Assembly: GCA_965220645.1 (NCBI GenBank)
Contig: OZ244836.1
Coordinates: forward strand, 3,072,335-3,136,334
Direction: 5' to 3'
Length of the DNA: 64,000 bases
Source of the DNA: Candidatus Aldehydirespirator sp.
GTDB taxonomy: Bacteria; Actinomycetota; Acidimicrobiia; Acidimicrobiales; Aldehydirespiratoraceae
In this document: positions 4,497 through 46,063 of the stretch, piece by piece
Layout of the letters: each line of letters opens with the position of its first letter
Numbering within the stretch: position 1 is the stretch's first letter
Translations under genes and position numbers: made by a program
The notes under the pieces: generated by a model
What the model was told of the DNA's origin: nothing
The model's database searches: none
What the model saw: only the letters and a program-made list of their open reading frames with translations

Positions 4497-4569
4497 GGGG
4501 TGGAGTCCTTTCTAGGGGGATCACCAGACGACAGAGCCCGTCGGGCGTCGACGTCCAAGCGGTACCGCA

Positions 4570-5448
4570 TTATCGCCGCGCTGGGGTCCGCTTGCTCAGG
4601 CCGGCTCTGGCGCCGCCGAACCATCGGTGCCTCACAGCCTGGTTGGGTACGTCCGGGCCGGGGCGCGTCCAGTCGGCCGTGCCGCCACGGCCGTCGGTGG
4701 CGGCCACCGCGACCGTCCCGACCAGCGCCACCACGCATACGGCTGCGGTTCCCAGAACCAAGTACATCACCAGGATCTGGATCACGACGGCATCCACCGG
4801 GTCGACGCCCGCCAGCAGCAGGCCGGTCGTGGCACCGGGGAGCGCGATCAGGCCCACCACCTTGGTCCGTTCCACTTGGGGGATGAGGGCCGAGCGGGCT
4901 GCTCGCGGCGCCACGAAGCGCACCACCTGGCGGCGGCTCAGTCCCAGGGCGAGCGCGGCCTCGATCTCGCCGATCCGGTCGCGGCACAGCCCAACCGCCT
5001 GGTCCACGGCCAGCACCGCCGAGGGCACCGCGTTGCCGATGGTGATGCCGGCGATCACCACCAAGGCCGCCGGCTCGTAGGGCAGCACGCCGAAGCCGAA
5101 CGTCACTCCCAGGCTTGTGGCCGCCGACGCCAGCACTACCGCTCCGGTGACCGGCAGGAGCCAGGCGATGCGATGCCGGGCCCGGCGACGGACGACGCCG
5201 GTGCCGACGCCGACCATGACCGCCACCCAGGCCACCGCCAGCCAGCTCGCCACAGCCGATTCGAAGATCAGAGCCAACACCGCGCCCACTGCGAGCAGCT
5301 GGACCGCAGCCCGTACCGCGGCCACGGCCACGTCTCGACCGATGCGCAGGCCCAGAGCCCACCCCAACGCCAACGCAAGCGCTACTAACGACAGCGACGC
5401 CGCCACCACGGGCCAGCCGACTACGTCCAAGCCGCCTGCACCGTCCAC
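4570..5448 (-). CDS. ABC-type iron export permease, FetB/YbbM (UPF0014) family
   Basis: A multi-TM protein with the ITIGNAV...EIEAALALGLSRRQ...IPQVERTKVVGLIALPGATTG pattern of the YbbM/FetB family. The start codon is GTG. Confidence 0.75.
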   Translation of the reverse strand: MDGAGGLDVVGWPVVAASLSLVALALALGWALGLRIGRDVAVAAVRAAVQLLAVGAVLALIFESAVASWLAVAWVAVMVGVGTGVVRRRARHRIAWLLPVTGAVVLASAATSLGVTFGFGVLPYEPAALVVIAGITIGNAVPSAVLAVDQAVGLCRDRIGEIEAALALGLSRRQVVRFVAPRAARSALIPQVERTKVVGLIALPGATTGLLLAGVDPVDAVVIQILVMYLVLGTAAVCVVALVGTVAVAATDGRGGTADWTRPGPDVPNQAVRHRWFGGARAGLSKRTPARR

Positions 5449-5544
5449 CGCGCCATTGTGCCGCAGCCCGCGACACTCCTGCTTCTAGAGCCGTGCGGAG
5501 ACACAGCTACGCTCTTGAGTGAAATTACTCAGAAGTGGTGGCGT

Positions 5545-5877
5545 CTAGCCCTCGACCAGGGCGATGAGTTCTTCGTCGCTGGGGATCTCCACGCCGGGCA
5601 CGTAATACGTGTAGAGGCTGGCGATCACCTCGCCCAGGCCGGAGCCGTCGCCGGAGGCCAGCTCGGCGGTGATCACCGAACCGTGTATGTGCACCGACGA
5701 CAGCCGGCCGGTGGCCAGCATCCGGCGGGCCAACTCGTCGGGGGGGCGGTCGCCGAGGATCTCCTCGCCGGCCCGGTAGCGCTCGTGGCCCATGCCGGTG
5801 AGGGTACGGTTCAGCTCGAAGCGCACGAGGCCCGGTCGGGGCGACGAGGTGCGCAGGAAGGTGACGGGCTGGCCCAT
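5545..5877 (-). CDS. small NifU-N-terminal-like (Nfu_N-type) domain protein
   Basis: 110 aa with an ATG start and high third-position G+C. The resemblance to Nfu/NifU N-terminal scaffold-like proteins is weak, so the function is uncertain. Confidence 0.6.
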   Translation of the reverse strand: MGQPVTFLRTSSPRPGLVRFELNRTLTGMGHERYRAGEEILGDRPPDELARRMLATGRLSSVHIHGSVITAELASGDGSGLGEVIASLYTYYVPGVEIPSDEELIALVEG

Positions 5878-5889
5878 GGCGACTGCAGG

Positions 5890-6687
5890 TTACAGCCGCC
5901 CGCCCGGCGCGGGTGCGCCCCAGTAGGGGGCATCGAACAGCCGGGGATGATCATCCTCCGGCGGTGGCAGGACACGCGGCACGCCGCTCCAGCGCAGATC
6001 GTCCATGAACACCCAGCGGCGGCGGTGAATGGCGCACGGACCCCACGCGGCCAGCGCGGCGATGTGGCGGGGGCAGGGGTAGCCCTTGTTGGACGCGAAC
6101 CAGTAGGCCGGACAGCGCTCCGCGGCTGCAATCATGAGGCGGTCGCGAGTGACCTTGGCCACCACCGACGCAGCCGCTATCGACAGGCTCGACGCGTCAC
6201 CGCGCACGATGGTGGTGACCCCGGGCCGGCTGTCGCTCGCCCCGTCACCGTCGGCCGAGTCCGCCGGTGCGGCCATGAAGTCCCAGGACCCGTCCACGAG
6301 CACGTGGTCGACCTCGATGCCCAGCCCGTCCACAGCCCGCCGGGCCGCCAGACGCTGGGCGTCGGCCATGCCCAACTCGGTGCACTCCTCCACGGTGGCA
6401 TGACCGACCGAGACAGCCCGAGCCCAGGCCCGTATGCGATCGTGCAGCACCTCGCGCTCGGCCGCGGTCAGCATCTTCGAGTCGCGCACCTTGTAGATGC
6501 GCTTGTCGGGATCGGCGACCACGGCCGCCACGGTCAGTGGACCGGCCCAAGACCCCCGGCCCACCTCGTCCACGCCCGCCACCACTTCGGTGCCGCCGGA
6601 CCATAGGCCCCGCTCCACCCGCAGCCCAGGTGCCCGGCCCCGCAGGGCGCGCCGCAGAGGGGCGGCGGCGGGAGCAGTTGCAGCCAT
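5890..6687 (-). CDS. rnhB: ribonuclease HII
   Basis: VAGVDEVGRGSWAGPL...DSKMLT...IVRGDASSLSIAAASVVAKVTRD...NKGYP are RNase HII motifs. Confidence 0.92.
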   Translation of the reverse strand: MAATAPAAAPLRRALRGRAPGLRVERGLWSGGTEVVAGVDEVGRGSWAGPLTVAAVVADPDKRIYKVRDSKMLTAAEREVLHDRIRAWARAVSVGHATVEECTELGMADAQRLAARRAVDGLGIEVDHVLVDGSWDFMAAPADSADGDGASDSRPGVTTIVRGDASSLSIAAASVVAKVTRDRLMIAAAERCPAYWFASNKGYPCPRHIAALAAWGPCAIHRRRWVFMDDLRWSGVPRVLPPPEDDHPRLFDAPYWGAPAPGGRL

Positions 6688-6694
6688 CGACGCG

Positions 6695-6823
6695 ACCGTA
6701 GCCGCGCCGACTCAGTGTCTCCCGCTCTTGTGCGCTGCGCTTACGGGCCGCTCGGGCCACGGCCTCGCGGGCTGCACTCGGCGGATCTTCGTGAACCGCG
6801 ACGTGCCCGCTCGGCCTCTGGTC
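6695..6823. mobile_element. MITE-like dispersed repeat, copy A (5'-truncated)
   Basis: The core CCCGCTCTTGTGCGCTGCGCTTACGGGCCGCTCGGGCCACGGCCTCGC lies at 6721-6768 and the terminal CCGCTCGGCCTCTGG at 6806-6821. The stop of the DsrE-like gene (6822-6824) abuts this terminus. Confidence 0.7.
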
Positions 6824-7310
6824 ACAGGGTCCAGGTGGAGAGGACCAGCGCCTTGTCGCGCCAGGCCTGGATGGTGGCGTCGAGCACGTCGAGCGGGTTG
6901 AACGGGGTCACGCCCTCCATGACGTCGTCCTCGCGCATGCCGTACAGAGCGCCCATGGCGAAGCGGCAGCAGTAGACGGTGGCGCCCTCGTTGATGAGGG
7001 TCTGGAGTTGGCGGTTGTACCCGAGGTTGCCGGGGAAGCCTTCCTGGCCCACGGCCGGGTAGCCCCGGGCGGCGTTGGCCATGAGCACGGCCGGGCCGTA
7101 CAGCACGAACGTCAGCTTGAAGCCCTTGCGCTGTATGCGGGTGGCGGTGAGCATGTTCACCAGGCCGACCGAGCCCTCGAACGGCACCGTGTGCATGAAC
7201 ACGTATGCCTGGTCGCCCTCGTCGGCCTTGTAGTCGGGGAAGATCTTCTCCTCGATGTTGTGCATGACGTCGCCCTCTTGGGGCGGCGGGATGGTTACTG
7301 TCTTGGGCAT
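6822..7310 (-). CDS. DsrE/DsrF-like (DrsE_2-type) sulfur-relay family protein
   Basis: The ATG at 7310 is preceded by AAGGAGG. The sequence MPKTVTIPPP...VYCCRFAMGALYGMREDDVMEGV resembles the DsrE-like family that commonly sits next to CoA-disulfide reductases. Confidence 0.75.
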   Translation of the reverse strand: MPKTVTIPPPQEGDVMHNIEEKIFPDYKADEGDQAYVFMHTVPFEGSVGLVNMLTATRIQRKGFKLTFVLYGPAVLMANAARGYPAVGQEGFPGNLGYNRQLQTLINEGATVYCCRFAMGALYGMREDDVMEGVTPFNPLDVLDATIQAWRDKALVLSTWTL

Positions 7311-7353
7311 ATTCGCCTCCTTGTTGTTGTTGTGGGTCGCTGGTCGATGGGTC

Positions 7354-7614
7354 TCAGACTGCCGGTCCCCGAGGCCGGCTCGACGTGACGGGCCAGTCCT
7401 TTCGGTGTGACCCCGGCAGCGCGGCGATGACGCGCCGCCGCACACCCCAGGGCAGCCGACGGTACGCCGGCGCGAACACTTGCATCCAGAAGCGCTCGCG
7501 CCAGCCGCGGGCCCTCTCCGGCGCCCTGGCGCCGTAGCGAGCACCGATACGCCGCTGGGCGTCGATCGCCAGGTAGTGCTCCGAGTTGGAGCGAAGCCAC
7601 TGCGGGAATCCCAT
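7354..7614 (-). CDS. hypothetical small basic protein (86 aa)
   Basis: It starts with ATG 19 nt after the upstream stop. Codon third positions are almost all G/C, like real genes here. It sits between two co-directional genes. I recognise no domain. Confidence 0.5.
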   Translation of the reverse strand: MGFPQWLRSNSEHYLAIDAQRRIGARYGARAPERARGWRERFWMQVFAPAYRRLPWGVRRRVIAALPGSHRKDWPVTSSRPRGPAV

Positions 7615-7632
7615 GACGGCGCCGCCCGACCC

Positions 7633-8955
7633 CTACAGCCCGGCCAACAGGTTCTGGGCGGCCACTGAGATCGGCTCGTTGAGTGCGCCTATGGCGGGTG
7701 AGTACACGTTCTCCATCGTGGCCAGTTCCTCGATGGTGAGGCCAACCCGGACCGCCATGGCCAGGAAGTCCGCTCGCTCCTTGATCCCCTCGCCGCCGAT
7801 CATCTGGGACCCGATCAGCCGGAGCGATCCGGGCTCGGCCAGGAGCTTCACCGTGATGGGCTTGACGCCCGGGTAGTAGCGGGCCCGGGTGATGCCCTGG
7901 GCCTTGCCCACAACGTGCTCAATGCCCAGCGCAGTAGCCAGCGTCTCCCCGAACGACACCCCGCCGATCATCCACTCGCCGGCCAGCAGTCCCCACGGAA
8001 CGAAGACTGCCCGGTAGTGGCGAGTCCCGCCGACGGCGTTGGTGCCGGCCGTTTTGCCCTGCGAGTAGGCGTGGGAGCCGGTCAGTCCCTGGATCGGAAT
8101 GTTGGAGACCCCGTGCGGGATCTCGGTGCAGTCGCCCGCGGCGTAGATGTTGGGATCCGAGGTCTGCATCTTCGAGTCGACGACCAGGCCGCCGGTTGTG
8201 CCCAGCTTGAGGCCGGCCGCGGCGGAGAGCGGATTGTTGGGCACCTTGTGTGTGCCGATGATGACGATGTCGGCTTCGATGTCGCCCTGCTGCGTCTCGA
8301 CGCCGCTCACGGTCCCGTCGCCCTTGAACGCCGTTACCCGGTTGCCCCACTGCATGTCGACGCCGGCGTCCTCCCAGGCCTGGCGAACCGGCTCGACGAT
8401 GTCGGGATCGAGCACGTCGGCCATGGGCCACGGGGCCGGATCGACGACGGTGCACTTGATCCCTCGGTGGACCATTGCCGCGACCATCTCCATCGCCACG
8501 AGACCCGCATCGATGATCACCGCGGAGGTGCAGGAGTCGAGGCGCTTGTCCCACTCCATGGCCTCCCGGATGTACTTGACCTCGTAGATGCCGTCGAGAC
8601 CGGCTCCGGGAACGTCCACTTGCGCATAGTTCCACCCGGTTGCGATCACCAGCCGGTCGTAGGACGCCTCACCCTCGCCGGCGACGGCGAGGGTGCGCGA
8701 CTTCGGGTCGATGGCTGTCACGGTTGTCTCGTAGTGGACGTCGATGCCGGTGGCGACGTACTGCTCCTTGGTGGCCAGGAAGAGACGCTCGAATGAGTCG
8801 ATCTCCTTTCCGTGGACGTAGGGAATGCCGCAGGGGCTGTAGGCCACATCGGTGTCCGCGGTGTAGACCACGACATCGGCGTTGGGATCGACACCCTTGG
8901 CTGCGCCCGCAGCCCCGATGCCTGCGGCGCCGCCGCCTATCACCGCTATCCGCAT
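7633..8955 (-). CDS. FAD-dependent pyridine nucleotide-disulfide oxidoreductase (CoA-disulfide reductase / NADH oxidase family)
   Basis: The N-terminus has VIGGGAAG. A single redox Cys lies in YSPCGIPY, a second dinucleotide fold in AVIIDAGLVAMEM, and the C-terminus has AAGDC. Confidence 0.88.
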   Translation of the reverse strand: MRIAVIGGGAAGIGAAGAAKGVDPNADVVVYTADTDVAYSPCGIPYVHGKEIDSFERLFLATKEQYVATGIDVHYETTVTAIDPKSRTLAVAGEGEASYDRLVIATGWNYAQVDVPGAGLDGIYEVKYIREAMEWDKRLDSCTSAVIIDAGLVAMEMVAAMVHRGIKCTVVDPAPWPMADVLDPDIVEPVRQAWEDAGVDMQWGNRVTAFKGDGTVSGVETQQGDIEADIVIIGTHKVPNNPLSAAAGLKLGTTGGLVVDSKMQTSDPNIYAAGDCTEIPHGVSNIPIQGLTGSHAYSQGKTAGTNAVGGTRHYRAVFVPWGLLAGEWMIGGVSFGETLATALGIEHVVGKAQGITRARYYPGVKPITVKLLAEPGSLRLIGSQMIGGEGIKERADFLAMAVRVGLTIEELATMENVYSPAIGALNEPISVAAQNLLAGL

Positions 8956-9001
8956 CGTGACCCTTTCGTCACAGAACTGTCTCCCGGCGTGCGACTAAGC
9001 C

Positions 9002-9103
9002 ATCCGAAATGTCGGATGAGATAACTACGTATCGGAACCTAAACCCGCCCTCAACCAGTGTCAAACCGCTCGCGCCCAGCGCGCGCCCCCTCAAACCGCC
9101 CGA
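9002..9103 (-). promoter_or_regulatory. regulatory module A: 16-bp palindrome plus CCTAAACCC / TCAAACCGC direct repeats, upstream of the CoADR-like operon
   Basis: The palindrome ATCCGAAATGTCGGAT lies at 9002-9017. CCTAAACCCGCCC is at 9038-9050, GTCAAACCGCT at 9060-9070 and CTCAAACCGCCCG at 9090-9103. The same layout recurs at 18085-18155. Confidence 0.55.
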
Positions 9104-9504
9104 ACCGACAGCTCGGGAGTGTTGCGGATCGTGTTGGTCACATAGCACACCCGGGCGGCTGCTTCGAGCAGGCGGTCCTTGACGGCATCCTCGCAGCCGA
9201 CGTCGACCCGGATCTCAAGGGCCGAGAAACTCGGACCGTCGTAAGTGCCGGTCACCTCCACACCCAGGTGGGCCAACTCGATGCCGCGCTTGCCGGCCGC
9301 GTAGGCCACCGCGAGGGTGAAGCACGATGAGACGGCGGCCAGCAGCAACTCGGTGGGCTGGGGGCCCTCGTTGGTCCCGCCCACACTCTCGGGCTCGTCC
9401 ACCGGGATCGTGAAGTCGCCGCTGGACACGTCGCAGCGGTAAGCGCCCAGCCACCGAGCCGAGACTGTAAGGGTCGGGGAACTCACGGCGGGTCGGCCTC
9501 TCAT
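9091..9504 (-). CDS. OsmC/Ohr family peroxiredoxin-like protein
   Basis: GGTNEGPQPTELLLAAVSSCF...RVCYVTNT is the OsmC-family pattern with both conserved Cys. The ATG at 9504 is preferred over the TTG at 9525 used in the ORF track. Confidence 0.8.
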   Translation of the reverse strand: MRGRPAVSSPTLTVSARWLGAYRCDVSSGDFTIPVDEPESVGGTNEGPQPTELLLAAVSSCFTLAVAYAAGKRGIELAHLGVEVTGTYDGPSFSALEIRVDVGCEDAVKDRLLEAAARVCYVTNTIRNTPELSVRAV

Positions 9505-9592
9505 AGCGCTGGCGCAGCCCGTCAACTATACGACACCGGTAGATCACAAGCGAAAAGGCCGTCGTCTAGGATGCACGCCCGGAGGTGGAGCA

Positions 9593-10231
9593 ATGAGTCA
9601 CCAGGCTGCGACTGAGAGCGCAGATCGGACCGCTTCGGAGCGTTCGGCCCAGGTGTCCGGCGAGAACCTGAGCGCGGTCGTGAACTCGATCGGACCCAAG
9701 ATCCGCCACCTGCGAAAGCAGTGGAGCCTGTCGCTGCAGCAGCTCGCCGACCGGTCCGACGTGTCGACCGCGGCCATTCACAAGGTGGAGTAGGGCACCA
9801 TGGTGCCGACCATCACGACCCTGCTGAAGCTGGCCGCAGCCCTCGAGCAGCCCGTGGCGTACTTCGTGGACGAGGAGCTTGAGTCACCGTCCTACGTGGT
9901 GTTCACTCCGGCAGCCGAGCGCAGGTCGATCTACACCCCCCATGAAGGCCTCACCTTGGAGGGCATCTCGGGCCCCTACGGGCAGTACTTCGTGGCCACC
10001 GCGATCGCCGAGGTGGAGCCCGGAGGCGACAGCGGCGAATCCCCGCTGCGCCACGCCGGCGAGGAACTGATCCACCTACTGTCGGGACGGCTCGACGTCG
10101 ACGTCTCCGGTCAGACGTTCCAGCTGCGCAGGGGCGACTCGATCCATTTCCGAACCGACCACGAGCATCGCTGGCGCAACCCCGCCAGGAGCCCCGCTCG
10201 TGCCGTGTGGACCGCCCTCAGACCCACCTGA
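9593..10231 (+). pseudogene. XRE-family HTH + cupin transcriptional regulator interrupted by an in-frame TAG (9791-9793)
   Basis: ORFs 9593..9793 and 9800..10231 are in the same frame. The joined sequence LSLQQLADRSDVSTAAIHKVE*GTMVPTITTLLKLAAAL is one continuous XRE helix-turn-helix. The C-terminal half is a cupin (GEELIHLLSGRLDV...GDSIHF). Confidence 0.65.
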
Positions 10232-10286
10232 GCGACGGCCCGCGGCCGAACTGGGGCCAGCGACACGCCAAGCAACAGCCCCTACA

Positions 10287-10343
10287 AATTCAATACCCCG
10301 GGCGCATGCCACGAGGGCATTGGCGACACCGGGGAATTGAATT
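10287..10343. other. nested hairpin in an AT-rich intergenic region
   Basis: AATTCAATACCCCGG (10287-10301) pairs with CCGGGGAATTGAATT (10329-10343) with one mismatch. An inner ATGCC/GGCAT stem lies at 10306-10320. Confidence 0.5.
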
Positions 10344-10432
10344 ACAACCAAGTATACGCTCGATCATCATGGACTTCAACAAACCCAAAGCTCGCAAAAA
10401 ATCCAAAGCTAGCAAAGGGAGGTAGACTGGAC

Positions 10433-10448
10433 ACCCTGCAAGCAGGGT
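10433..10448. promoter_or_regulatory. perfect 16-bp palindrome ACCCTGCAAGCAGGGT upstream of the ATPase gene
   Basis: Read directly from the sequence, 89 nt upstream of the ATG at 10537. The 2-nt centre is too small for an RNA hairpin loop, so a protein-binding site is more likely. Confidence 0.35.
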
Positions 10449-10536
10449 CAGGGATGCAATGGCACTACGAGCAGCGATCCTCTCAGGCGGCGAGCGCCGC
10501 ATCTTGGAGGCCCCGCGGGCGCGGCGGGTGTAGAGC

Positions 10537-11661
10537 ATGGCCAGCGGCAACCCTTTCAGGCCGTCGTTCGGGGCCTCGCCACCCGTGCTCGCAGGGCGCG
10601 CGGGGGTGCTGGATGCGCTCGGGGAGGCCCTGGACAGCGGTGCGGGTCACCCCGACTTCACGTCGCTGCTCACTGGAGTGCGCGGCGCGGGCAAGACGGT
10701 GACGCTCAACGCTGTGCAGGAGGACGCGCGCGACCGCGGCTGGCTGGTGATCGCGGAGACCGCCAGCGGGGATCTGTGCAGCAGACTGGTCGCCGCGGTG
10801 CTGGAGCTGTCGGGTGGCGACCACGGGCAGACTGGACGGCCGCGCCTGGCGGGAATCAGTGCACTAGGCGTGGGCATCGAGTTCACCCGAGCCGACCCGG
10901 TTGACGCTGGGGCGACCGACGCCCGGTTGCGGTCCGTTCTGACCGACCTTGGCTCCCGCCTCGCATCCGAGCGGAGAGGGCTGCTCATCACGCTCGACGA
11001 ACTACAGGGCGGCAAGCCGTCGGAGTTGCGCGAGTTTGCCACAACGCTTCAGCACGTCACGCGGCGCGAGGAACTGCCCATCGCGTTCGTGGGCGCGGGC
11101 CTTCCCAGCATCGACGACACCGTGCTACAGGATTCAGCCATCACGTTCCTGCAGCGCTGCTCCCGCCATGAGATCGCCGAGCTGTCCGACGCGGCCACTG
11201 TGACGGCCTTCGCTGAGCCGATAGCCGCGCATGGAGGACGCATCAGCGACGACGCGCTGCGTCGCGCCGTTGAAGCCAGCAATGGATACCCCTTCATGGT
11301 GCAGCTCATCGGCTTCCACTCCTGGCGGGCCGCATCCTCGGACCCGCCGCACCTGAAGATCGCCGACGTGTCGTCGGGTATAGCCGAGGCCGAGCGCCGG
11401 CTCCCCCACCTGGTGCTGGCGCCTATGTGGCGGTCGATGTCGGGAGTGGACCGCCAGTTCGCCCTCGCCATGGCCCAAGACGACGCCGAGACCTCGACCG
11501 CGGACATCTCAAAGCGCCTCGGTCGCAGTTCCAGCTACATAAGCACCTACCGGTCGCGGCTCATCCGAGCCGGCTTCATCCGCAGCACCGGCCACGGCCG
11601 CGTCGACTTCGCCCATCAAGCCACCCGCGCGTGGCTGCGATCCCCCGACCGAACCCCCTGA
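10537..11661 (+). CDS. AAA/STAND-like ATP-binding protein with a C-terminal winged-helix domain
   Basis: The N-terminus is NPFRPSFGASPPVLAGR. Walker A is GVRGAGKT and Walker B is LLITLDELQ. The C-terminus STADISKRLGRSSSYISTYRSRLIRAGFI looks like a wHTH. Confidence 0.85.
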   Translation: MASGNPFRPSFGASPPVLAGRAGVLDALGEALDSGAGHPDFTSLLTGVRGAGKTVTLNAVQEDARDRGWLVIAETASGDLCSRLVAAVLELSGGDHGQTGRPRLAGISALGVGIEFTRADPVDAGATDARLRSVLTDLGSRLASERRGLLITLDELQGGKPSELREFATTLQHVTRREELPIAFVGAGLPSIDDTVLQDSAITFLQRCSRHEIAELSDAATVTAFAEPIAAHGGRISDDALRRAVEASNGYPFMVQLIGFHSWRAASSDPPHLKIADVSSGIAEAERRLPHLVLAPMWRSMSGVDRQFALAMAQDDAETSTADISKRLGRSSSYISTYRSRLIRAGFIRSTGHGRVDFAHQATRAWLRSPDRTP

Positions 11662-11685
11662 CAGTTCGGCCAATATGATCAACTC

Positions 11686-14277
11686 GTGGAGACCGAGCCA
11701 GGCGGCGCGCCGACGAGCGCACCGGGCGGTTGGTCCCTGGATCCTACGCTTGTTCACCCTCCCTCCGCCGTCGGTGGGAGGAGCGCACCTGCCGGTTGGT
11801 ACCCGGACCCTGCGGACGTGTCAAGGCAGCGACTATGGGACGGCCATCAGTGGACCGACGAAGTAAGCACGGTGGTCAGCGCCTCTGCGGATGCGACGGA
11901 ACCACCCCCTTCTGAGCCGCCGCGTGGCGCTGACTCGGGGCCGCACAGTCCGCCGCTAGCGTCGCTCGGCAGACGACTAACGGCAAGAGTCATCGACTCC
12001 TTATGTCTGCTAGCAGCACTGTACCTGATCGCATCGCTAGCATCGAGATACGCAAGTTACGAACTATCTGACGTATTGAATGGCGAATTAAGCTCGCGGT
12101 TGATCCTGCTCGTGCCACTGTTCTTATGGGAATTCGTTCCACAGGCGTTCACCGGACGCACCTTAGGCAAGGCTCTGCTTGGTATTCGTATCACCAGAGG
12201 TGACGACTCTCCTAGCAACCGATTCCTGGCTGCCTTCGTTCGTTCTGTCGGAATGCTGCTCTTTCTTCTGCCACTCATATTTCTCATAAGCTGCATCACG
12301 GTATTCAGAAAGAAGCGCCGCACGATTCCGGATATGCTCGCCGGAACGTCAGTTGTGAGGGTCGCTACGGCACCGATCTGGCGACTAGTGATAGCCGTGC
12401 TCGTGATCATGATTCTGACCTCATCTGTGGGCTACAGCTATCTTGAGGTGTGGCGACCAGCGGCCAGAATAGGCAATGAGTGGGAGCCCTTGAAATCCTT
12501 TTACGATGCCGATCAAGTTCGAGCCGAAGTTGTCGCCAACATCGACATACTGGACTACGACTTTGTGGTACTCCGCAAGTCTGGAGACACATCCGTATGG
12601 GACATTGCCTACTTCACGGGTGATCCAGAAGACGAGGAAGCTCTCACGGATGAGCTTTGGGAAGACTTCCTCATGGTCGAGTGCTACCGGTATAGGGATG
12701 ACACCTCCGGTTCGCCGGGCGTCGCCTTCGATTGGCCCCAACTAACTCCTTCCGGCGGAACCGATGTGGAACTGTCTTGGCGTGCGAGCACGGGAGCGTC
12801 CGGACAAGCTGTGGGGCTGATGAACTATGAGTCAGAAGATGTGAGTGGTGCCTGGATCGCGACAGCCGGTCTGACGGAGGACGACATTCGGAACAATCTG
12901 CGCGAGAGTGGCCGCTCACCTGATGAACTCGACGGAATACCGGTTGTCTTGCATGACTTCTACGAGGCGTTGCTGGAGGCCGACAGGGTCACGCTCACGG
13001 CCGGGGCCACGAGCAACACCTGGGACCTGCCCGAGGACTCAAGCTCGCTCAGGAGTCTGGTCGAACGATGCGAGGAGGCAAGCGCCCAAGACTCGTCTCC
13101 CGTTGAAGCAACGCCCTCTACGGAAGCAAGCAGCAGCGAGGCGAGCACCGGAGGCTCCTTGCCTGGCGATGTGGATCGCAGTACGACTTCGGCATGCGAA
13201 TTCTCGGACCGGTCAGCCGCTGTAAGAGGCGCTGTCTTCCAAATGTTCGCCGGGGGCGGCATCGGCACGGCTTTCTATGTCGGCAACGACGAGTGGATAA
13301 CCGCGGCCCATGTCGTGGAGAACCAGCGCAGCGTCGTCCTGCGAAACGGCGCCACAGAGCTTTCAGCCACCGTCAAGGGCGGCGATCTGATGGCGGATCT
13401 TGCCCTGTTGGAAGCAAACGGCGACGGGATCGCAGCGCTTCGCTTCGGATCTCTGCGAGAAGTTGGTGCAGGCTTCACTGTTTTCGCGATCGGCTTTCCG
13501 CTGTACGAGGCAGCCGAGTCGTCAGTCACGAGCGGTGTGCTCTCCAGGGTTGAGCAGTACGAGGACTTGGGCGAGGTCATCGTGACGGACGCGTCGGTGA
13601 ATCCCGGCAACAGCGGAGGACCGCTCGTGGACGAGTGCGGCGATGTAGTAGGAATGATCATCGCCAAACATGTGGGAGCTGATGTTGAAGGCATCGGCTA
13701 CGCAGTCCCCGAGACGACGCTACAAGATCAGATCCCGTCTCTTCGCACAGCTGGACCCGATAGCATCGCAAGTGGTCGATCCGACGCCAGCGTCAATCGT
13801 GGAGGTTACACTGACGGCTCAACCGAAGAGGGTTGGATCTTCGGCGAAGATGCAAATGTCGATGGCGGATTTGAGTACTATTCTCTAGAGGCTGAATGGC
13901 ACTCTAGTTACATATCTGGGTACGGCCTTACACTGTTTCTGGTCTGTAGCACGACAGGATCATTGTCAAACGACTATATCTCTGTCTCGACGCCATTCCT
14001 GATCTTCAACGACTACAACTACGACAGTTCAACGGTCCGCTACAGGTTCGAGGACATGACAGCACCCTTCACTGAGCAGTCGTGGTGGAGTTCCGAAGAT
14101 GTCGAATCTTGGCTGTTCGCTCCAGAGGACACTTCATTCGCCGAGCACCTTGGTCGTGCCGGCTCGGGACGCCTGTACATGGAGTTCATTCCCGGCAGCA
14201 CCGTGGGAGATGTGGAGAGCGCCGAATTCATCGTCGATGGCGCGTCGGAGGTCTTGCGAGCGCTCGACTGCTGGTAG
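11686..14277 (+). CDS. multidomain membrane protein: DUF2510-like + RDD + unknown domain + trypsin-like serine protease + unknown C-terminal domain
   Basis: GWYPDPADVSRQRLWDGHQWTDE is the DUF2510 motif (aa 36-58). An RDD-type region with 3-4 TM helices spans aa 93-250. The S1 triad is ITAAHVV (H542), MADLALL (D571) and GNSGGPL (S643). G+C is clearly lower than in the flanks. Confidence 0.88.
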   Translation: METEPGGAPTSAPGGWSLDPTLVHPPSAVGGRSAPAGWYPDPADVSRQRLWDGHQWTDEVSTVVSASADATEPPPSEPPRGADSGPHSPPLASLGRRLTARVIDSLCLLAALYLIASLASRYASYELSDVLNGELSSRLILLVPLFLWEFVPQAFTGRTLGKALLGIRITRGDDSPSNRFLAAFVRSVGMLLFLLPLIFLISCITVFRKKRRTIPDMLAGTSVVRVATAPIWRLVIAVLVIMILTSSVGYSYLEVWRPAARIGNEWEPLKSFYDADQVRAEVVANIDILDYDFVVLRKSGDTSVWDIAYFTGDPEDEEALTDELWEDFLMVECYRYRDDTSGSPGVAFDWPQLTPSGGTDVELSWRASTGASGQAVGLMNYESEDVSGAWIATAGLTEDDIRNNLRESGRSPDELDGIPVVLHDFYEALLEADRVTLTAGATSNTWDLPEDSSSLRSLVERCEEASAQDSSPVEATPSTEASSSEASTGGSLPGDVDRSTTSACEFSDRSAAVRGAVFQMFAGGGIGTAFYVGNDEWITAAHVVENQRSVVLRNGATELSATVKGGDLMADLALLEANGDGIAALRFGSLREVGAGFTVFAIGFPLYEAAESSVTSGVLSRVEQYEDLGEVIVTDASVNPGNSGGPLVDECGDVVGMIIAKHVGADVEGIGYAVPETTLQDQIPSLRTAGPDSIASGRSDASVNRGGYTDGSTEEGWIFGEDANVDGGFEYYSLEAEWHSSYISGYGLTLFLVCSTTGSLSNDYISVSTPFLIFNDYNYDSSTVRYRFEDMTAPFTEQSWWSSEDVESWLFAPEDTSFAEHLGRAGSGRLYMEFIPGSTVGDVESAEFIVDGASEVLRALDCW

Positions 14278-14335
14278 CTCAGCCCTTCGGAGTAAGCGGC
14301 GCGCTTCGACCGAGTTCTTGACGGGCCTGTGACGC

Positions 14336-15736
14336 TCAGGGCAGCCGGCGGTCGAGGTCGAGCAGGGCTTGCTTGAAGCACTCGATGGGTGCCCGGGCGA
14401 CTCCTGCGCCCACCTGGCCCGATCCGTCGGAGACGTGGACGATCCCGGTGTTCACCGCGGGCGTTGTCGAGCTCTCGACGACCCGCCGGACGTCGACCCC
14501 CAGCGGCGTGCCGGCGTCGTCGAGCACGGGCAGGCGCAGCCGGGTGCTGGTGCCGGCACAGATCCGGCTCATAGCCGCGGTGACCGCGGCGGCGTCGGCC
14601 ATCCTGCCGCCGAGGAACCCCGCCACCGCGGGCGAGTTGGCCGCCGCGGCGCCGCCGAGCCCGACCAGCTCCAGCACGGCGCTGTCCCCGATGTCGGGCG
14701 CACTGGTGTCCGGTCCCTGGTCTGGGTGGTACAGGGCATCCTGAACCGGAGGCGACGGGGCGATGTGCCACGTCTCGGAGCAGCCGGCCAGACGGATGCC
14801 GTAGGTGGTGCCGTTGCGGGCCATCGTCGTGACGATGCTGGAGCCGGTCACCTGCCCGGCCCAACCGGTCAGGGCGCGGGCGCCGGCCATGGCAATGTTG
14901 AGGAACATCAAGTGGTTGGTGCTCAGGAAGTCGGCCACCTCCCCGATTCTGTCCGTACCGGCACGGACCAGGTGCGGTAGCAGGTCTCGCAGCAGGAGGT
15001 TGGTCGTGGCCTGGACCCGCATGTGGACGTCATCTCCCATCGTGATGCCCTGAGCGGCCAGAGAGAAGACGTCTATGGGCCCGGACCTGTCCAGGGCCCG
15101 GGCCAGTGCGGGGCCGAGCGCGTCGCGCAGGAACCTGAGGCGATCGATGGCCGCCTCGGAGTCCACCCCGAACCAGGCAACGGCCCCCGCGCCCTGGTTG
15201 AGGCTGGAGTAGGCCGTCGTGCCGCCTTGCTCGACCGACACCACATACACCGGAGCGGACGGCCCGATGGCACTCGCCATGGGCACCACCGTGGAGTGCT
15301 CGTTGGCGGCCTCGAGGCGAACCTCTCCGGCGTCCAGCATTCGGTCGGCAGCTTCGCGGTGCGGGGCCCAGCCCTCGGCCACAACCGCAGCCCTGACCGA
15401 GCGCCGCAGCGGATCGCACATCTCAGCCCAGCCGATGGGCGGGCCGCAGTGCAGGATCGTCGGGGACTCGAAACCATCGATAACTGCTCCGGCAGTCTCG
15501 ACCCCCAGCAGCATCGGCACCCCGCGGTCGAGGCGATCGATCACTTCGGCGTTGGCCGCGTCAATGCGGTCCGAGGCGGGGCCCAGCAGCCTGGCCAGCG
15601 CGGCCACAGCCTCCGCGTCGCCGCCCGCCGGGATACGCCAGTCCACCCCGACCGCGGGCGCGCCCTGGTCCCGTACGGCCGTCTCGAACCGCTCGAGCCC
15701 GATGTTGACAACCGAAACCCGTTCGGGCAGCTCCAC
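14336..15736 (-). CDS. DUF1116 (YlbE-like) family protein
   Basis: 466 aa. The overall pattern (VVNIGLE.F...VDWRPPAGGD, LNQGAG, TTMARNG, GDSAVLE..GLGG) matches the YlbE/DUF1116 family that accompanies FdrA. The start codon is GTG. Confidence 0.8.
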   Translation of the reverse strand: MELPERVSVVNIGLERFETAVRDQGAPAVGVDWRIPAGGDAEAVAALARLLGPASDRIDAANAEVIDRLDRGVPMLLGVETAGAVIDGFESPTILHCGPPIGWAEMCDPLRRSVRAAVVAEGWAPHREAADRMLDAGEVRLEAANEHSTVVPMASAIGPSAPVYVVSVEQGGTTAYSSLNQGAGAVAWFGVDSEAAIDRLRFLRDALGPALARALDRSGPIDVFSLAAQGITMGDDVHMRVQATTNLLLRDLLPHLVRAGTDRIGEVADFLSTNHLMFLNIAMAGARALTGWAGQVTGSSIVTTMARNGTTYGIRLAGCSETWHIAPSPPVQDALYHPDQGPDTSAPDIGDSAVLELVGLGGAAAANSPAVAGFLGGRMADAAAVTAAMSRICAGTSTRLRLPVLDDAGTPLGVDVRRVVESSTTPAVNTGIVHVSDGSGQVGAGVARAPIECFKQALLDLDRRLP

Positions 15737-15745
15737 AACGACCCT

Positions 15746-16300
15746 CTAGGACATTGTGACGAGCAGAGCGCTAGGCGTGTCGCGGGCGGCGGGCAAGCGC
15801 AGGCAGGCGTCGTCAGGAATCTCGCTCTCGGCCAGGCTGCCGGCTTCAGAGAGTTCGAATGTCATGGGCTGGTGAGGCAGGCCGAAGTAAGGAAGGGGCG
15901 GACCGTTGTGCTTCCAGCCGAGCCGCTCGAAGAAGTTGACGTTCTGGAGTTGGACAAAGGCGTCCATCACGTCACCGCCCGCTGCGGCCGCCGTCGAGAC
16001 CGCGAACCGAACCAGCCGCATGCCCACGATTCCGGCTCGGTGACCGGGCAGTACTGCTAGCCGATCGCCCTTCCATCGGCCGGCCGTGTCGGTGCGGTAC
16101 AGCCGAACTGTGCCGACGGCCACCGATCCCCGCCCCGCAAGAACGTGGACTGTCTCAGGGTCGCGATCCCAGTCGTCGACATCGGTGAACGGAATGACCC
16201 GCTGTTCCTCCACGAAGATGCGGTGACGGATGCGCATATGCCAGCTCAGGGCAGGCGAAGTCAAGGCCCGCCAGCACACGATCCGATCCGATGGGCTCAA
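15746..16300 (-). CDS. GNAT family N-acetyltransferase (MSMEG_0567/sll0786-like)
   Basis: MRIRHRIFVEEQRVIP...VLAGRGSVAVGTVRL...GDRLAVLPGHRAGIVGMRLVRFAV...NVNFFERLGW is a GNAT fold. The start is uncertain: TTG 16300 is chosen because it lies just after the radical SAM stop, and GTG 16279 and ATG 16237 are alternatives. Confidence 0.75.
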   Translation of the reverse strand: MSPSDRIVCWRALTSPALSWHMRIRHRIFVEEQRVIPFTDVDDWDRDPETVHVLAGRGSVAVGTVRLYRTDTAGRWKGDRLAVLPGHRAGIVGMRLVRFAVSTAAAAGGDVMDAFVQLQNVNFFERLGWKHNGPPLPYFGLPHQPMTFELSEAGSLAESEIPDDACLRLPAARDTPSALLVTMS

Positions 16301-16343
16301 CTGCGATCCGCCTGAGGCGTCGGGGTGTTCACGACCACTGCGA

Positions 16344-17462
16344 TCAGCCCGTCGCTCGCACCGGTATGAGGCTGCGGTTCCCGTTGGATTGCAGCTCCCT
16401 CTCCATCGCACCGACCGGCGAGCAGGCCTGGCAACGGGCACAGCCGGCGGCGACCTTGTCCGCGGTCAGCCCCCGCTCCACCAGGTAGGGCGCGACCTTC
16501 CGGGCGACCCGCTCGACGTAGTCGGAGGTGGGGGGCATCCAATCGCCCATGAGCGAGCCCGGAACCGGTCGCAGTGGCACGATGAACGGGTACACGCCAA
16601 TATCGGCCGCCCGACGGCAGCCGTCGACCATCAGATCAGGATCCTCTCCCATGCCCAGGATCACATAGGTGGAGACCTGGCCCTCACCGAAGCGCTCCAC
16701 CGCATACTCCCAAGTCTCGAAGTAGCGCTCGATGCCGGTGCGGTACTTGGGGGGCGCAACCCACTCGAGCACGGCCGGGTCGAAGGTCTCCACGTGGATC
16801 CCCACTGAGTCGATACCCCGGTCAGCCACTTGGTCGATCACGCTCAGGTCGTCGGGCGGCTCGAACTGCACCTCGACCGGCAAGCCGGAGGACTCCTTCA
16901 TGGCCTCCCCGCACTTGGCCACGTACAAAGCGCCCTTATCGCGGCCGTAGGTGGAACCGGTCGTCAAGGTGATGTCCACCGCGCCATCCAGTTCCTTGGC
17001 CGCCACCGCCACCTCGGCCAGCTGCGCGGGCCGCTTGACCAGCACTGTGCTGCCCGAGGCAAGGGACACCCCGATCCCGCAGAAGCGGCACTGGTCCTGG
17101 TTGCCCCAGTAGGCGCAGGTCTGCAGCACGGTGCTGGCCAGCGAGTCGAGGTGCATGAGGGCTAGCTGCCAGTACGGGACGCCGTCGGCGGTGGTGAGGC
17201 CATAGAAGCGGGGCCGGTCGGCCGGAGCGGCCCCAGCCAGGCGGATCCCGTCGGCGTAGATCCCGAAGCCCTCGTCCTCGGGCTCCAGAGAGTAGGGGGA
17301 GTCGGCCACGAAGGAGGCGTCCACGGGCACGGTGACCGCGGTGCCCTCGATCCAGACCATCCCCGCGTCCGAGGGGCCAGCGCCACCCGGTCGGCGCTCG
17401 AAGGGGGCGTTTATCCGTAGGCCCTTGAACTGGAGATCGATGATGAGCTCTGCCAGCGACAC
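16344..17462 (-). CDS. radical SAM protein (MSMEG_0568-like)
   Basis: A Cys cluster lies in LQTCAYWGNQDQCRFCG, there is a TIM-barrel-like core, and the C-terminus has CARCQAC. The position next to the GNAT gene matches the Nit1C-type cluster. Confidence 0.75.
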   Translation of the reverse strand: MSLAELIIDLQFKGLRINAPFERRPGGAGPSDAGMVWIEGTAVTVPVDASFVADSPYSLEPEDEGFGIYADGIRLAGAAPADRPRFYGLTTADGVPYWQLALMHLDSLASTVLQTCAYWGNQDQCRFCGIGVSLASGSTVLVKRPAQLAEVAVAAKELDGAVDITLTTGSTYGRDKGALYVAKCGEAMKESSGLPVEVQFEPPDDLSVIDQVADRGIDSVGIHVETFDPAVLEWVAPPKYRTGIERYFETWEYAVERFGEGQVSTYVILGMGEDPDLMVDGCRRAADIGVYPFIVPLRPVPGSLMGDWMPPTSDYVERVARKVAPYLVERGLTADKVAAGCARCQACSPVGAMERELQSNGNRSLIPVRATG

Positions 17463-17534
17463 TACCCAATTCCTACCACCGGACAGCCGGCTCCGCCGTG
17501 TCCGCCGCGGTAGGGATTCGTGATGGCTCCCCTG

Positions 17535-18062
17535 TTAGGGAATGCTGTTCCCCGTGGCGAGGACTATGGCCGGGACCCAGAAGGTGTAGATCGCGGTTAC
17601 GGCCAGGATCCCGCCCAAGGGCTTCGCTTGCATCTTGCCGTAGGTGGTGGCCGTCACTGACAGGAAGGCGACCAGCCAGACGATCAGGATCGACCTGAGC
17701 ATCCACTCCCCGGGCAGGGCATCCCACCAGAAGAGAGGAAGGATGGCCGTCGGGACGCCCAGGTTGCCAACCACGCGCAAGTCCCATCCGTTCATCTCGG
17801 CCTTGCCGAGCACCACGAAGAACAGGCCGTAGAACACGATCAGTCCAGCCAGGACGACGGAAGCGTCATCCAGAGGCCGAGCCCACATGATGTAGACGGC
17901 TTGCACCAGGTTGAGCACACCGACGAGGAAGGACGCGTGGCCGATGCCGACAAGCGGATTCGTTCCACCCTCCTTCTGGTCGGCGCCCACTCCGAGGAAG
18001 TAGAGCGCATTGAGCCACACGACTAAGCCAGTGGCTATGAAGACGACGGTGATAGGAGGCAT
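17535..18062 (-). CDS. AmiS/UreI family amide/urea channel
   Basis: About 175 aa with six predicted TM helices, a typical AmiS/UreI size and pattern. The ATG at 18062 is preferred over the ORF-track start at 18107, which would read through the upstream palindrome. Confidence 0.75.
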   Translation of the reverse strand: MPPITVVFIATGLVVWLNALYFLGVGADQKEGGTNPLVGIGHASFLVGVLNLVQAVYIMWARPLDDASVVLAGLIVFYGLFFVVLGKAEMNGWDLRVVGNLGVPTAILPLFWWDALPGEWMLRSILIVWLVAFLSVTATTYGKMQAKPLGGILAVTAIYTFWVPAIVLATGNSIP

Positions 18063-18084
18063 AACAAGCCTTTCATCGGTCTCG

Positions 18085-18155
18085 ATCCGACATTTCGGAT
18101 GAGACATACTTATCTCGCAACCTAAACCCTGAGCATGGGCAGGTCAAACCCGCCC
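18085..18155 (-). promoter_or_regulatory. regulatory module B: palindrome plus CCTAAACCC / GTCAAACCCGCCC repeats, upstream of amiS
   Basis: The palindrome ATCCGACATTTCGGAT lies at 18085-18100, CCTAAACCC at 18121-18129 and GGTCAAACCCGCCC at 18142-18155. It aligns with 9002-9070 at about 33 of 46 positions over the first block, by hand count. Confidence 0.55.
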
Positions 18156-18168
18156 GGGGCGCGCTCGG

Positions 18169-18690
18169 CTATTTATCCCCGAGACTGCCGAGATGGTGGA
18201 CGCTGTGGTCGTGCGCGCGGTGGTCGTGGTCGCTGTGGTCGTGCGCGCGGTGGTCGTGGTCGCCGTGGTCGTGATGGGTGTGATCGTGGTCGTGCGCGCC
18301 GTGGTCGTGGTCGCCGTGGTCGTGATGGGTGTGATCGTGGTCGTGGTCGCCGTGGTCGTGGTCGCCGTGGTCGTGACCGGGCGGGCGGGCGGCGAACGTG
18401 GCGGCCAGCTCGTCTACCTCGGGCTCAGCGACTATCGCAAGCTCCGAGACGATCGACTCGAGCGCCTCCTGCCAGCGCTCGTAGTAGCGGTACTCGCCGG
18501 AGGGCTCCGCCTCCCAGCGCTGCACGGCGGCGATGAGGTGGTCGCGGAACTCGTCCCAGGTGAACAGGCCCTTCTCCACTAGGGCCATGGCCATCGCGAA
18601 GCTCCGGCCCTCCCAGGGCGCGCCGAACACCAGCTCGCCGTTGAGCCGGGGCGGGGCGGCCGGGCCTTCGATGTCGAGCGTCAGGGCCAC
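18169..18690 (-). CDS. nitrile hydratase accessory (activator) protein with a His/Asp-rich C-terminal tail
   Basis: LVFGAPWEGRSFAMAMALVEKGLFTWDEFRDHLIAAV is the NHase accessory-protein signature. The tail (aa 106-166) contains 28 His among 61 residues by hand count. Confidence 0.85.
   Translation of the reverse strand: MALTLDIEGPAAPPRLNGELVFGAPWEGRSFAMAMALVEKGLFTWDEFRDHLIAAVQRWEAEPSGEYRYYERWQEALESIVSELAIVAEPEVDELAATFAARPPGHDHGDHDHGDHDHDHTHHDHGDHDHGAHDHDHTHHDHGDHDHRAHDHSDHDHRAHDHSVHHLGSLGDK
18193..18375 (-). repeat. coding His/Asp codon repeat (GTGGTCGTG-type units)
   Basis: Tandem degenerate units encode HDHGDHDH... Confidence 0.9.
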
Positions 18691-18700
18691 CGGTGCCTGC

Positions 18701-19300
18701 TCAGCCTCCGCTGACTGTGGCCACTCCCACCATGGCGTCGCGGGTCACCAGCGCGGCCAAATCCTCCTCGGAGAGATCCCCGGTGCCGGTGGGACGCTGG
18801 GGCAGGACCAGGTAGCGGTTCTCGGCGCTGGAGTCCCAGACCCGCACGTCCACGCCGTCATCAAGGTCGAGTCCCATCTCCCGCAGCAGGGTGCGGGGCT
18901 CGCGCACCATGCGGCTGCGGTAGGCCGGGTCCTTGTACCACTCGGGCGGCAGGCCCAGAACCGGCCACGGGTAACACGAGCACAGGGTGCAGACCACGAC
19001 GTTGTGCACATCGTTGGAGTTCTCGACTACGACGATGTGCTCGCCCTGGGGGCCGGCGAATCCCAGTTCCTTGACGGCGCCGGTGCCGTCGGCGAGCAGG
19101 CGCTGGCGGTACTCGCCATCGACCCAGGCCTTGGCCACGACCTTGGCACCGTTCATGGGGCCGACATCGTTGACGAAGCGGTTGATGAAGCCGTCGAGCA
19201 CCTCGGACTTGACCAGGCCGCGCTCGGTCAGCAGTGACTCCAGCGCCTCGGCCCGAACCGGCGGCGGTGGCCGGTCCTTGGTGTGGGAGTGGTCAGCCAT
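18701..19300 (-). CDS. nthA: nitrile hydratase alpha subunit, cobalt type
   Basis: The metal-binding motif is [11 protein letters not shown]. Thr and Tyr at these positions are characteristic of Co-type enzymes (Fe-type has CSLCSCT). Confidence 0.93.
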
Positions 19301-20014: not shown

Positions 20015-20083
20015 AGACAGTGACAGGTCGCAAGAGAAACGCAGAACTGCCTGGCCCTGACGCACGGAACTGGATCGGAAGAC

Positions 20084-45925: not shown

Positions 45926-46063
45926 GAGGCCGAGCGGATAGGGAGCGAACTCGGTCCATACGGGCGAGGCCGTGGCCCGAGCGGCCCGTGAGCGCAGCGA
46001 ACAAGAGCGGGAGTGACACCGCTGCGACGCGACGGGCTGTCGCCTATCCGCGCAGCCTCTAAG
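45922..46063. mobile_element. MITE-like dispersed repeat, copy D (most complete, 142 bp, with terminal inverted repeats)
   Basis: The left end is CTAAGAGGCCGAGCGGATAGG (45922-45942). The right end CCTATCCGCGCAGCCTCTAAG (46043-46063) is its inverted repeat at 18 of 21 positions. The TAA of the lipid kinase and the TAG of the minus-strand phosphatase both lie inside the TIRs. Confidence 0.8.

Follow-up and report, generated by a model that had tools for sequence, protein, structure and literature searches.

The RDD family is a very large family of membrane proteins, for which cation/proton antiporter activity, inhibition of the protease SppA and a proposed cytoplasm-facing binding site have been reported. 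Its members are usually described with three transmembrane (TM) segments (PMC5996927) and have been proposed to hold a cytoplasm-facing intramembrane site (PMC12419801). One of them, SppI, binds and inhibits the membrane protease SppA (PMC7568657). A different membrane-anchored protease, MarP, has four N-terminal TM helices followed by an S1 protease domain (PMC12183614). Here we describe a gene that joins an RDD anchor and a predicted S1 protease in one polypeptide, together with two domains that have no detectable relatives. It lies in a stretch of 64,000 nucleotides (nt) of contig OZ244836.1 (positions 3,072,335 to 3,136,334) from Candidatus Aldehydirespirator sp., hereafter called the window. 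We propose, with a probability of about 55%, that this gene encodes an accessory envelope protease that was acquired horizontally and varies between strains.

The protease gene and the domains of its product

The open reading frame (ORF) starts with GTG at 11686, ends at 14277 on the forward strand, and is complete and uninterrupted over 863 amino acids (aa). Its features are the following (window coordinates, with aa positions of the protein).

11686..14277, forward strand: protease gene, DUF2510-RDD-TM-orphan domain-linker-S1C protease-orphan beta domain, 863 aa
11712..11814, forward strand: 37-nt direct repeat in two copies, 11712-11748 and 11778-11814, 81% identity (family D1)
11791..11886, forward strand: DUF2510 domain, aa 36-67 (Pfam PF10708, E 2.4e-9, 37.2 bits vs cut-off 24)
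11956..12345, forward strand: RDD domain, aa 91-220 (Pfam PF06271, E 1.6e-17), with hydrophobic segments 100-120, 137-155 and 179-206
12370..12447, forward strand: putative extra TM helix, aa ~229-254 (Kyte-Doolittle maximum 2.41), with an RKKRR loop just before it
12448..13071, forward strand: orphan middle domain, aa 255-462, acidic and of mixed alpha/beta type; C333 and C462 invariant
13072..13194, forward strand: Ser/Thr/Glu-rich linker, aa 463-503, variable in sequence and length, with indels in the family alignment (A1)
13195..13752, forward strand: predicted S1C protease domain of the HtrA/DegP type, aa 504-689; catalytic triad H542/D571/S643, invariant cysteines C504 and C651
13834..14274, forward strand: orphan C-terminal domain, aa 717-863, resembling a beta-sandwich plus two short helices; C754 and C862 invariant

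The five-part layout that an initial annotation had proposed from the letters of the DNA was borne out by the ORF check, by the Pfam domains and by its conservation in relatives. Matches to DUF2510, RDD and Trypsin_2 are all above the Pfam gathering scores. The motif positions first given are correct within 1-2 residues (GWYPDP begins at aa 37), and phrog_21924 matches the protein over the DUF2510 domain (aa 30-65). Both copies of the 37-nt repeat encode 'APxGW..DP', and the second copy opens the Pfam DUF2510 match; the first gives the N-terminus a degenerate additional DUF2510 start. A literature search for DUF2510 yielded no paper.

RDD membership was judged by the Pfam gathering score together with a conserved Arg before the first TM segment, an Asp within this segment and a C-terminal Asp. 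We observed a score of 64.5 bits against a gathering score of 24.1, with profile positions 1-137 of 137 covered, and the signature residues R96/R97/R101, D104 and D216 are invariant in the family wherever this region is present. The region had earlier been drawn as an RDD domain of aa 93-250. It comprises the Pfam domain (91-220) and the extra hydrophobic helix (about 229-254). The anchor module, too, lacks a close relative: the nearest RDD protein outside the family is 34% identical to the anchor module (E 1.6e-5).

The protease that the initial annotation had placed at aa 510-685, with H542/D571/S643 and without a PDZ domain, was recovered by Pfam as Trypsin_2 (aa 527-657, E 3.6e-25). The three catalytic residues, of which S643 lies within GNSGGP, are invariant in all 11 aligned family members, and the full-length protein has no Pfam PDZ match at E<=0.1. 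The best PDB sequence match of this domain is the DegP-like 5y28 (E 2.5e-19, GNSGG region aligned); identity to the solved DegP/DegQ/HtrA1 structures is ~30% across the GNSGGP region. NCBIfam models of HtrA and MarP match the protease domain alone and far under their cut-offs. The full-length HtrA model TIGR02037 has a cut-off of 416 bits and gave 90.1, the remaining HtrA, DegS and DegQ models gave 46-85 bits against 408-800, and the MarP model NF033740 gave 67.4 bits against 250 (E 1.2e-18), over only its positions 213-379, the protease part. Because of this last score, the window protein is not assigned to MarP. These comparisons identify the domain as a predicted protease of the HtrA/DegP type, PDZ-less and with a complete catalytic triad.

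Two domains under purifying selection have no detectable relatives

Residues ~255-505 and ~686-863 gave no Pfam match at E<=10, and no match to PHROGs or to PDB sequences, either as single sequences or as family profiles. In a full-length PADLOC scan every match was confined to the protease domain. The common carbohydrate- or peptidoglycan-binding modules that the initial annotation had named as a possible ordinary explanation were looked for, and neither region falls in any Pfam, PHROGs or PDB sequence family. The acidic, motif-less region first drawn at aa 260-500 is now bounded as a domain (255-462) and a linker (463-503), and for the beta-looking region of aa 690-863 AlphaFold2 gives a beta-sandwich with two short helices.

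The middle domain was also run in an exhaustive HMMER scan against 1.84 billion cluster representatives, which revealed no relatives outside the family. It returned three matches, namely the family itself, P0017 and P0018. P0017 is a frameshifted, more divergent fragment of the family (59% identity). We rejected P0018 as a homologue, as the match is a short fn3-like motif ('ITGLMNYE') repeated 8 times and not a domain-level match; at most it hints at beta structure. P0018 is a secreted protein of 3,663 aa with ~20 fn3-like repeats, which share 'ITGLMNYE' with the middle domain, with Asp-rich calcium-binding-like linkers between them and with a subtilase S8 domain and a P-domain in its C-terminal part. 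For the C-terminal domain, a word-index search found truncated copies of the same gene only; P0014-P0016, considered as stand-alone C-terminal domains, are truncated remnants of the protease gene. The two orphan domains are unrelated to each other and to the protease domain (hhalign probability <1%), and an origin by duplication or internal repeats was rejected on the same value.

AlphaFold2 models were built from shallow family alignments of 11-14 sequences. The middle domain was modelled as mixed alpha/beta with a confidence (pLDDT, predicted local distance difference test) of 48. The C-terminal domain reached pLDDT 57 and a predicted template modelling score (pTM) of 0.58, with pLDDT 70-89 over its last ~85 residues. 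As the initial annotation had suggested, the models were compared with known folds by Foldseek, and nothing was found in PDB or among the viral models of BFVD at E<=0.001. The best match of the C-terminal domain was a weak one to IalB (3dtd, E 5e-3, template modelling score 0.38-0.46), and generic beta-sandwiches came next; the middle-domain matches had template modelling scores <=0.2 and were disregarded.

Conservation of these regions was then assessed within the family. Copies of the ORF in 10+ independent metagenome contigs have 64-100% amino-acid identity, and the pairwise ratio of nonsynonymous to synonymous substitution rates (dN/dS) is 0.1-0.38 across all domains (0.17-0.31 in the middle domain, 0.22-0.36 in the C-terminal domain and 0.11-0.25 in the protease domain). 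In the linker aa 463-503 it varies from 0.14 to 0.67 across pairs, and inter-domain linkers reach ~1 or more. With conservation in 10+ contigs and purifying selection in every domain, the ORF is not a product of chance. Both orphan regions are real domains without detectable relatives, kept by purifying selection and not junk. Six invariant cysteines make one pair per module (C333/C462, C504/C651, C754/C862), and the C-terminal end of the family proteins is invariant (...AL[DN]CW). The orphan C-terminal domain sits where HtrA proteins have PDZ.

The three ectodomain modules always occur together across the loci, and the anchor is exchangeable. The RDD segment is also mosaic: its synonymous divergence (dS) between the window and another locus, L002, is 1.12, against 0.1-0.4 in the adjacent segments.

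The ectodomain probably lies outside the membrane

The anchor has four hydrophobic segments (100-120, 137-155, 179-206 and 229-254). No Lys or Arg is present in the loop 122-137, and six are present in each of the loops 156-186 and 207-229. As both of these loops are rich in Lys/Arg, both flanks of the third segment look cytoplasmic, which suggests that this segment is re-entrant and that helix 229-254 leads outside. The DUF2510 domain would face the cytoplasm. Residues 255-863 have 106 Asp+Glu and only 33 Lys+Arg. Acidic Ser/Thr-rich linkers and paired cysteines are typical for exported actinobacterial proteins, and HtrA-type domains are generally extracytoplasmic. Taking together the loop charges, the acidity, the Ser/Thr/Glu linker, the cysteine pairs and the HtrA type of the protease, we consider it highly probable that the ectodomain (255-863) is outside the membrane.

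The four hydrophobic segments can also be counted as four true TM helices. With the N-terminus inside, residues 255-863 would then be cytoplasmic and the protein a membrane-bound intracellular protease, for example an effector acting on cytoplasmic targets. S1 proteases associated with defence (RT-protease, Avs effectors) are indeed cytoplasmic, and an RDD domain with three TM segments (PMC5996927), one extra helix and an inside N-terminus lead to an inside C-terminus. However, this topology puts the RKKRR loop, with its six Lys/Arg, outside, contrary to the positive-inside rule. The exported-protein traits of the ectodomain, a cysteine pair per module and an acidic Ser/Thr-rich linker, speak against it, as does the HtrA type of the protease. 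At the locus L001 the ORF that precedes the ectodomain has a basic N-terminus and one TM signal-anchor. The four-helix count is itself weakened by the third RDD helix, which is predicted inconsistently: SppI is predicted with 'two or three' helices, and RDD topology is experimentally unresolved (PMC7568657). We therefore regard a cytoplasmic protease as unlikely.

A rare family in uncultured Acidimicrobiia

The search for the same domain order in other genomes, proposed in the initial annotation, showed the architecture to be real and rare. It is shared by only ~10 close relatives (all metagenomic, identity 64-84%) in 5.8 billion protein clusters; the next matches are ordinary HtrA proteins with PDZ (PF13180, PF17820, PF00595), aligned over the protease domain only. 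Of 185,579 species-representative genomes, a single one, a metagenome-assembled genome of 'Candidatus Aldehydirespirator' (Acidimicrobiia), holds a remnant, 83 residues long, and the JGI metagenome contigs gave only a distant trypsin match (31%). The family was found only in a narrow group of Acidimicrobiia, all of them uncultured.

The gene is a foreign cassette that is swapped between strains

The G+C content at third codon positions (GC3) of the protease gene is 0.645, the lowest of the 43 long ORFs in the window (median 0.861, standard deviation 0.064); its immediate neighbours have 0.83 (AAA_16) and 0.87 (AllG). The protease gene has a GC3 of ~0.65 at all other loci too, against 0.83-0.95 in the core genes of the host. 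We compared the window with seven syntenic contigs (L014-L020), in which the flanks are retained (OsmC, HTH-cupin and AAA_16 with a winged-helix-turn-helix domain (AAA_16-wHTH) on one side, then AllG, GNAT and radical SAM on the other) and the content of the slot between them is different. The features of this slot are as follows.

11682..14337, no strand assigned: swap-in cassette, made up of the protease gene plus 4 nt before and ~60 nt after it; homology to L014/L017 is lost after 11681 and returns at 14338
10537..11661, forward strand: AAA_16 ATPase with a winged-helix C-terminus, 374 aa (Pfam AAA_16 4e-11, HTH_24 3.3e-6), of native composition
14336..15736, reverse strand: AllG-family protein (Pfam AllG 9.4e-67), right edge of the variable slot
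L014:7146-10852 (also in L015-L020), strand not stated: alternative cassette, filling the slot equal to window 11682-14337

As homology stops 5 nt before the GTG (11681) and restarts at the allG stop (14338), the cassette consists of the protease gene alone, placed in a chromosomal hotspot. Synteny at AllG is kept in L005, L011, L012 and L014-L020. No flanking repeats or att-like sites were found around the cassette, no tRNA in the window, and no Rfam elements at 8-18 kb.

The alternative cassette encodes a secreted protein of 621 aa with a signal peptide, an SLH domain (1.9e-6), many cysteines and a 'LIHELAHVY' HExxH motif; its GC3 is 0.645, the same as that of the protease gene. It also encodes an AAA_14/DUF4143 ATPase, with a weak Mrr_cat match, and an ORF of 45 aa. 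In two further contigs (L003/L011) an Abi_2/PD-T4-5-like gene stands in place of most of AAA_16 and the protease gene stays, and in L005 an internal deletion of 1,696 nt, not a multiple of 3, destroys the protease gene. An obligate AAA_16-protease pair was also considered. We find it unlikely, as the AAA_16-wHTH gene has native GC3, is present with either cassette and stays when the downstream cassette is swapped, and is lost to Abi_2 while the protease stays.

Being a foreign, strain-variable cassette in a narrow group, the gene appears to encode an accessory and not a housekeeping protease. The contrary explanation would be an ordinary envelope quality-control protease, that is, an HtrA or MarP paralogue with lineage-specific decorations, whose task is to break down misfolded exported proteins or to activate an enzyme of the cell wall. 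The HtrA/DegP-like protease domain and the purifying selection in all domains fit such a role; moreover, membrane-tethered S1 proteases are common in Actinomycetota, and MarP (4 TM + protease) activates RipA (PMC12183614). Nevertheless, one would not expect a housekeeping protease to form a single-gene cassette of foreign GC3, to be exchanged for unrelated genes in sister strains, or to suffer internal deletion (L005) or reduction to a stub (L004, L006). The single remnant among the species-representative genomes, the lack of PDZ and the HtrA and MarP scores far under the cut-offs point in the same direction, and a quality-control role is in our view doubtful.

Several further observations concern the slot and the rest of the window. 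The intergenic stretch 10233-10536 is A-rich and of lower GC, with an AT skew of ~0.38, and has 'CCAAAGCT[C/A]GCAAA' twice. It forms the left edge of two changes: the Abi_2 replacement in L003/L011 (at 10380) and, in L005, an insertion of 4.3 kb with genes of 864 aa (fn3/PPC) and 189 aa. A second variable spot lies ~6 kb downstream of the protease gene, at window 20042-20083, where L005 (16511-18611) has an inserted AbiEi/AbiEii toxin-antitoxin pair. Between the window and L012, identity is 98.9% over 4537-16349 and 90.8% over 16300-17478 (radical-SAM gene), which suggests a local recombination tract in the latter interval. The ORF at 46059-47396 on the reverse strand has the second-lowest GC3 (0.715) of the long window ORFs and may be another foreign gene.

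Copies at other loci: intact genes, remnants and defence neighbours

Besides the window, intact single-frame copies are present in L012, L002, L011, L008 and L009/L010. The tally is six distinct intact loci (window included) of 863-990 codons, two frameshifted copies (L003 and L013, on 5x and 8x long-read contigs) and four truncated or deleted ones (L001, L004, L005 and L006). In L004 and L006 only stubs of 83-103 residues are left near guaA, and the L006 stub is beside insertion sequence and integrase fragments. At 7.5 kb from this stub, L006:17857-19530 encodes a SLFN/AlbA_2 + HATPase_c_4 protein with a pAgo-associated PADLOC match (1.4e-19). The 277-aa neighbours of L008 and L006 are unrelated to each other.

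The broken copies in six contigs raise the possibility that the gene is a decaying passenger without a current function in this genome. The frameshifts of L003 and L013 are probably assembly errors, given the 5x-8x coverage of their contigs and the 99.95% identity of L013 to the window. Intact genes of 863-990 codons are present in the window and at no fewer than five further distinct loci, dN/dS is well under 1 in every domain, and the catalytic, RDD and cysteine positions are invariant. We consider a passenger gene very improbable.

The L001 copy has lost its DUF2510-RDD anchor, has an unrelated single-TM ORF in its place, and adjoins a split TmtA (Tiamat). The ORF L001:9450-9925 has a basic N-terminus, one TM helix ('VVVVGGLLLGGCWLIG') and a Cys-containing domain of ~100 aa, and ends 8 nt before the ectodomain homology resumes in another frame; it could be a domain-swapped anchor broken by a frameshift, or a pseudogene. 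TmtA is split in two ORFs (L001:12288-16486 and 17533-18822; PADLOC 1.7e-265 and 3.6e-96) beside a tyrosine integrase, and L001:6121-9027 encodes an orphan protein of 968 aa. TmtA, the integrase and this orphan together resemble a defence island integrated into the 944-kb contig L001. Among the intact copies, the most divergent one (L008) comes after a tyrosine integrase, and a 53%-identical integrase is near the L001 copy. In L009/L010 the protease gene adjoins an NYN gene matching HEC-09 (NYN upstream in L009).

These neighbours bear on another explanation, in which the gene serves anti-phage or anti-competitor defence, alone or with the AAA_16-wHTH ATPase. A tethered protease would destroy phage or other foreign proteins at the envelope, or the RDD domain would be the effector after the ectodomain senses an attack. 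Known or candidate defence genes are found next to the protease gene at the alternative loci: in L001 TmtA of Tiamat (E 1.7e-265) and an integrase, in L003/L011 the PD-T4-5/AbiD-like Abi_2, and in L009 the NYN gene that matches HEC-09; the AbiE pair and the AAA_14/DUF4143 gene occur in the same region of sister strains. The gene also shares traits that defence genes typically show (foreign GC3, a patchy distribution, mosaic modules and frequent decay), and some defence proteins contain S1 protease domains (PADLOC RT-Protease_XI, 1e-15; PDC-M35A; Avs1b). On the other hand, the PADLOC-DB 2.0 matches are restricted to the generic protease domain, and no defence model fits the anchor, the orphan domains or the architecture. 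The ectodomain is the most conserved part of the protein, unlike a surface in an arms race; the AAA_16 gene is native and behaves independently of the protease gene, as described above; and no copy was found in viral contigs. The case for defence comes down to adjacency, and we rate it as somewhat unlikely.

Discussion

The low GC3 at every locus, the precise single-gene boundaries of the cassette, the exchange and loss of the gene between close strains and the conserved triad and cysteines are consistent with an accessory protease of the envelope whose gene came in by horizontal transfer and varies between strains. In the mechanism that we propose, DUF2510 and the two basic RDD loops would face the cytoplasm, the third hydrophobic segment would be re-entrant, and helix 229-254 would carry the chain outside. 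The middle domain, the protease and the C-terminal beta domain would form a tethered ectodomain with one disulfide each (C333-C462, C504-C651 and C754-C862), in which the orphan domains may assume the role of PDZ in substrate recognition or gating. By analogy with SppI, which binds and inhibits SppA, the RDD anchor may hold or regulate the protease at the membrane. Likely substrates would be envelope proteins or incoming foreign proteins. As the gene is gained, swapped and lost between close strains and has defence-rich neighbourhoods, its benefit is probably conditional, such as surface remodelling or conflict with phages or competitors, and not housekeeping quality control.

Certain points weigh against this proposal. 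Between strains the gene and its flanks have diverged to the same degree (84-87% identity at the DNA level), which suggests vertical inheritance at this locus for some time and also fits a stable physiological role. The location in an island is on its own no proof of a role in conflict. The regulatory role of RDD is extrapolated from one system with another protease class (S49). The model of the middle domain is poor and that of the C-terminal domain moderate, and a plain count of four hydrophobic segments from an inside N-terminus would leave the protease in the cytoplasm.

The alternative cassette invites a broader hypothesis, in which the slot after AAA_16-wHTH is a swap site for interchangeable envelope-anchored hydrolase effectors, namely the RDD-tethered protease and the SLH-anchored HExxH protein of the same foreign composition. 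They would jointly make an undescribed envelope-level defence or exclusion system, and the fused RDD would reveal the RDD family as a membrane regulator of extracytoplasmic proteases. We put this forward as a long shot.

An accessory envelope protease of this kind would matter in several ways. The protein contributes two domains without detectable relatives. It suggests that envelope proteases can act as swappable cassettes in the variable, defence-rich islands of uncultured Acidimicrobiia; a conflict role, if true, would make it a new kind of envelope-level defence component. The natural RDD-protease fusion offers independent genomic support for a link between RDD proteins and proteases, and makes this link testable in one polypeptide.

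Comparison with known systems

The catalytic domain is that of the HtrA/DegP/DegQ/DegS proteases (MEROPS S1C), with GNSGGP and the H/D/S triad, and the envelope location argued for here would be shared as well. Unlike these proteins, the window protein is PDZ-less, with an orphan beta domain in the position of PDZ, has an extra orphan domain of 200 aa before the protease, and is anchored by a polytopic RDD domain instead of a signal peptide or a single helix. Its gene is a mobile accessory gene, whereas HtrA genes are core, and its NCBIfam scores, 46-90 bits, fall far short of the cut-offs (416-800).

MarP (Rv3671c) of Mycobacterium tuberculosis, also from Actinomycetota, has the same order of an N-terminal multi-pass anchor and then an S1 protease domain without PDZ (PMC12183614). 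The anchor of the window protein, however, is RDD plus one helix and not the four-helix anchor, and two additional orphan ectodomains are present. Furthermore, MarP is a conserved chromosomal gene with RipA as its substrate, whereas the window gene is a variable cassette.

SppA-SppI (YteJ) of Bacillus subtilis couples, physically and functionally, an RDD-family membrane protein to a membrane-tethered serine protease, and the window protein has the two kinds of module in one chain. SppA is an S49 protease with a Ser/Lys dyad, in contrast to the S1C Ser/His/Asp triad found here, and coupling in that system is in trans within an operon instead of by fusion. The DUF2510-RDD proteins of Actinomycetota resemble the N-terminal 220 residues, which match both Pfam models and keep the R/D/D signature; ordinary members are short, without a protease ectodomain of 600 residues, and the nearest is 34% identical. 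From these sequence comparisons, the window protein resembles a MarP/HtrA-type envelope protease and belongs to neither family.

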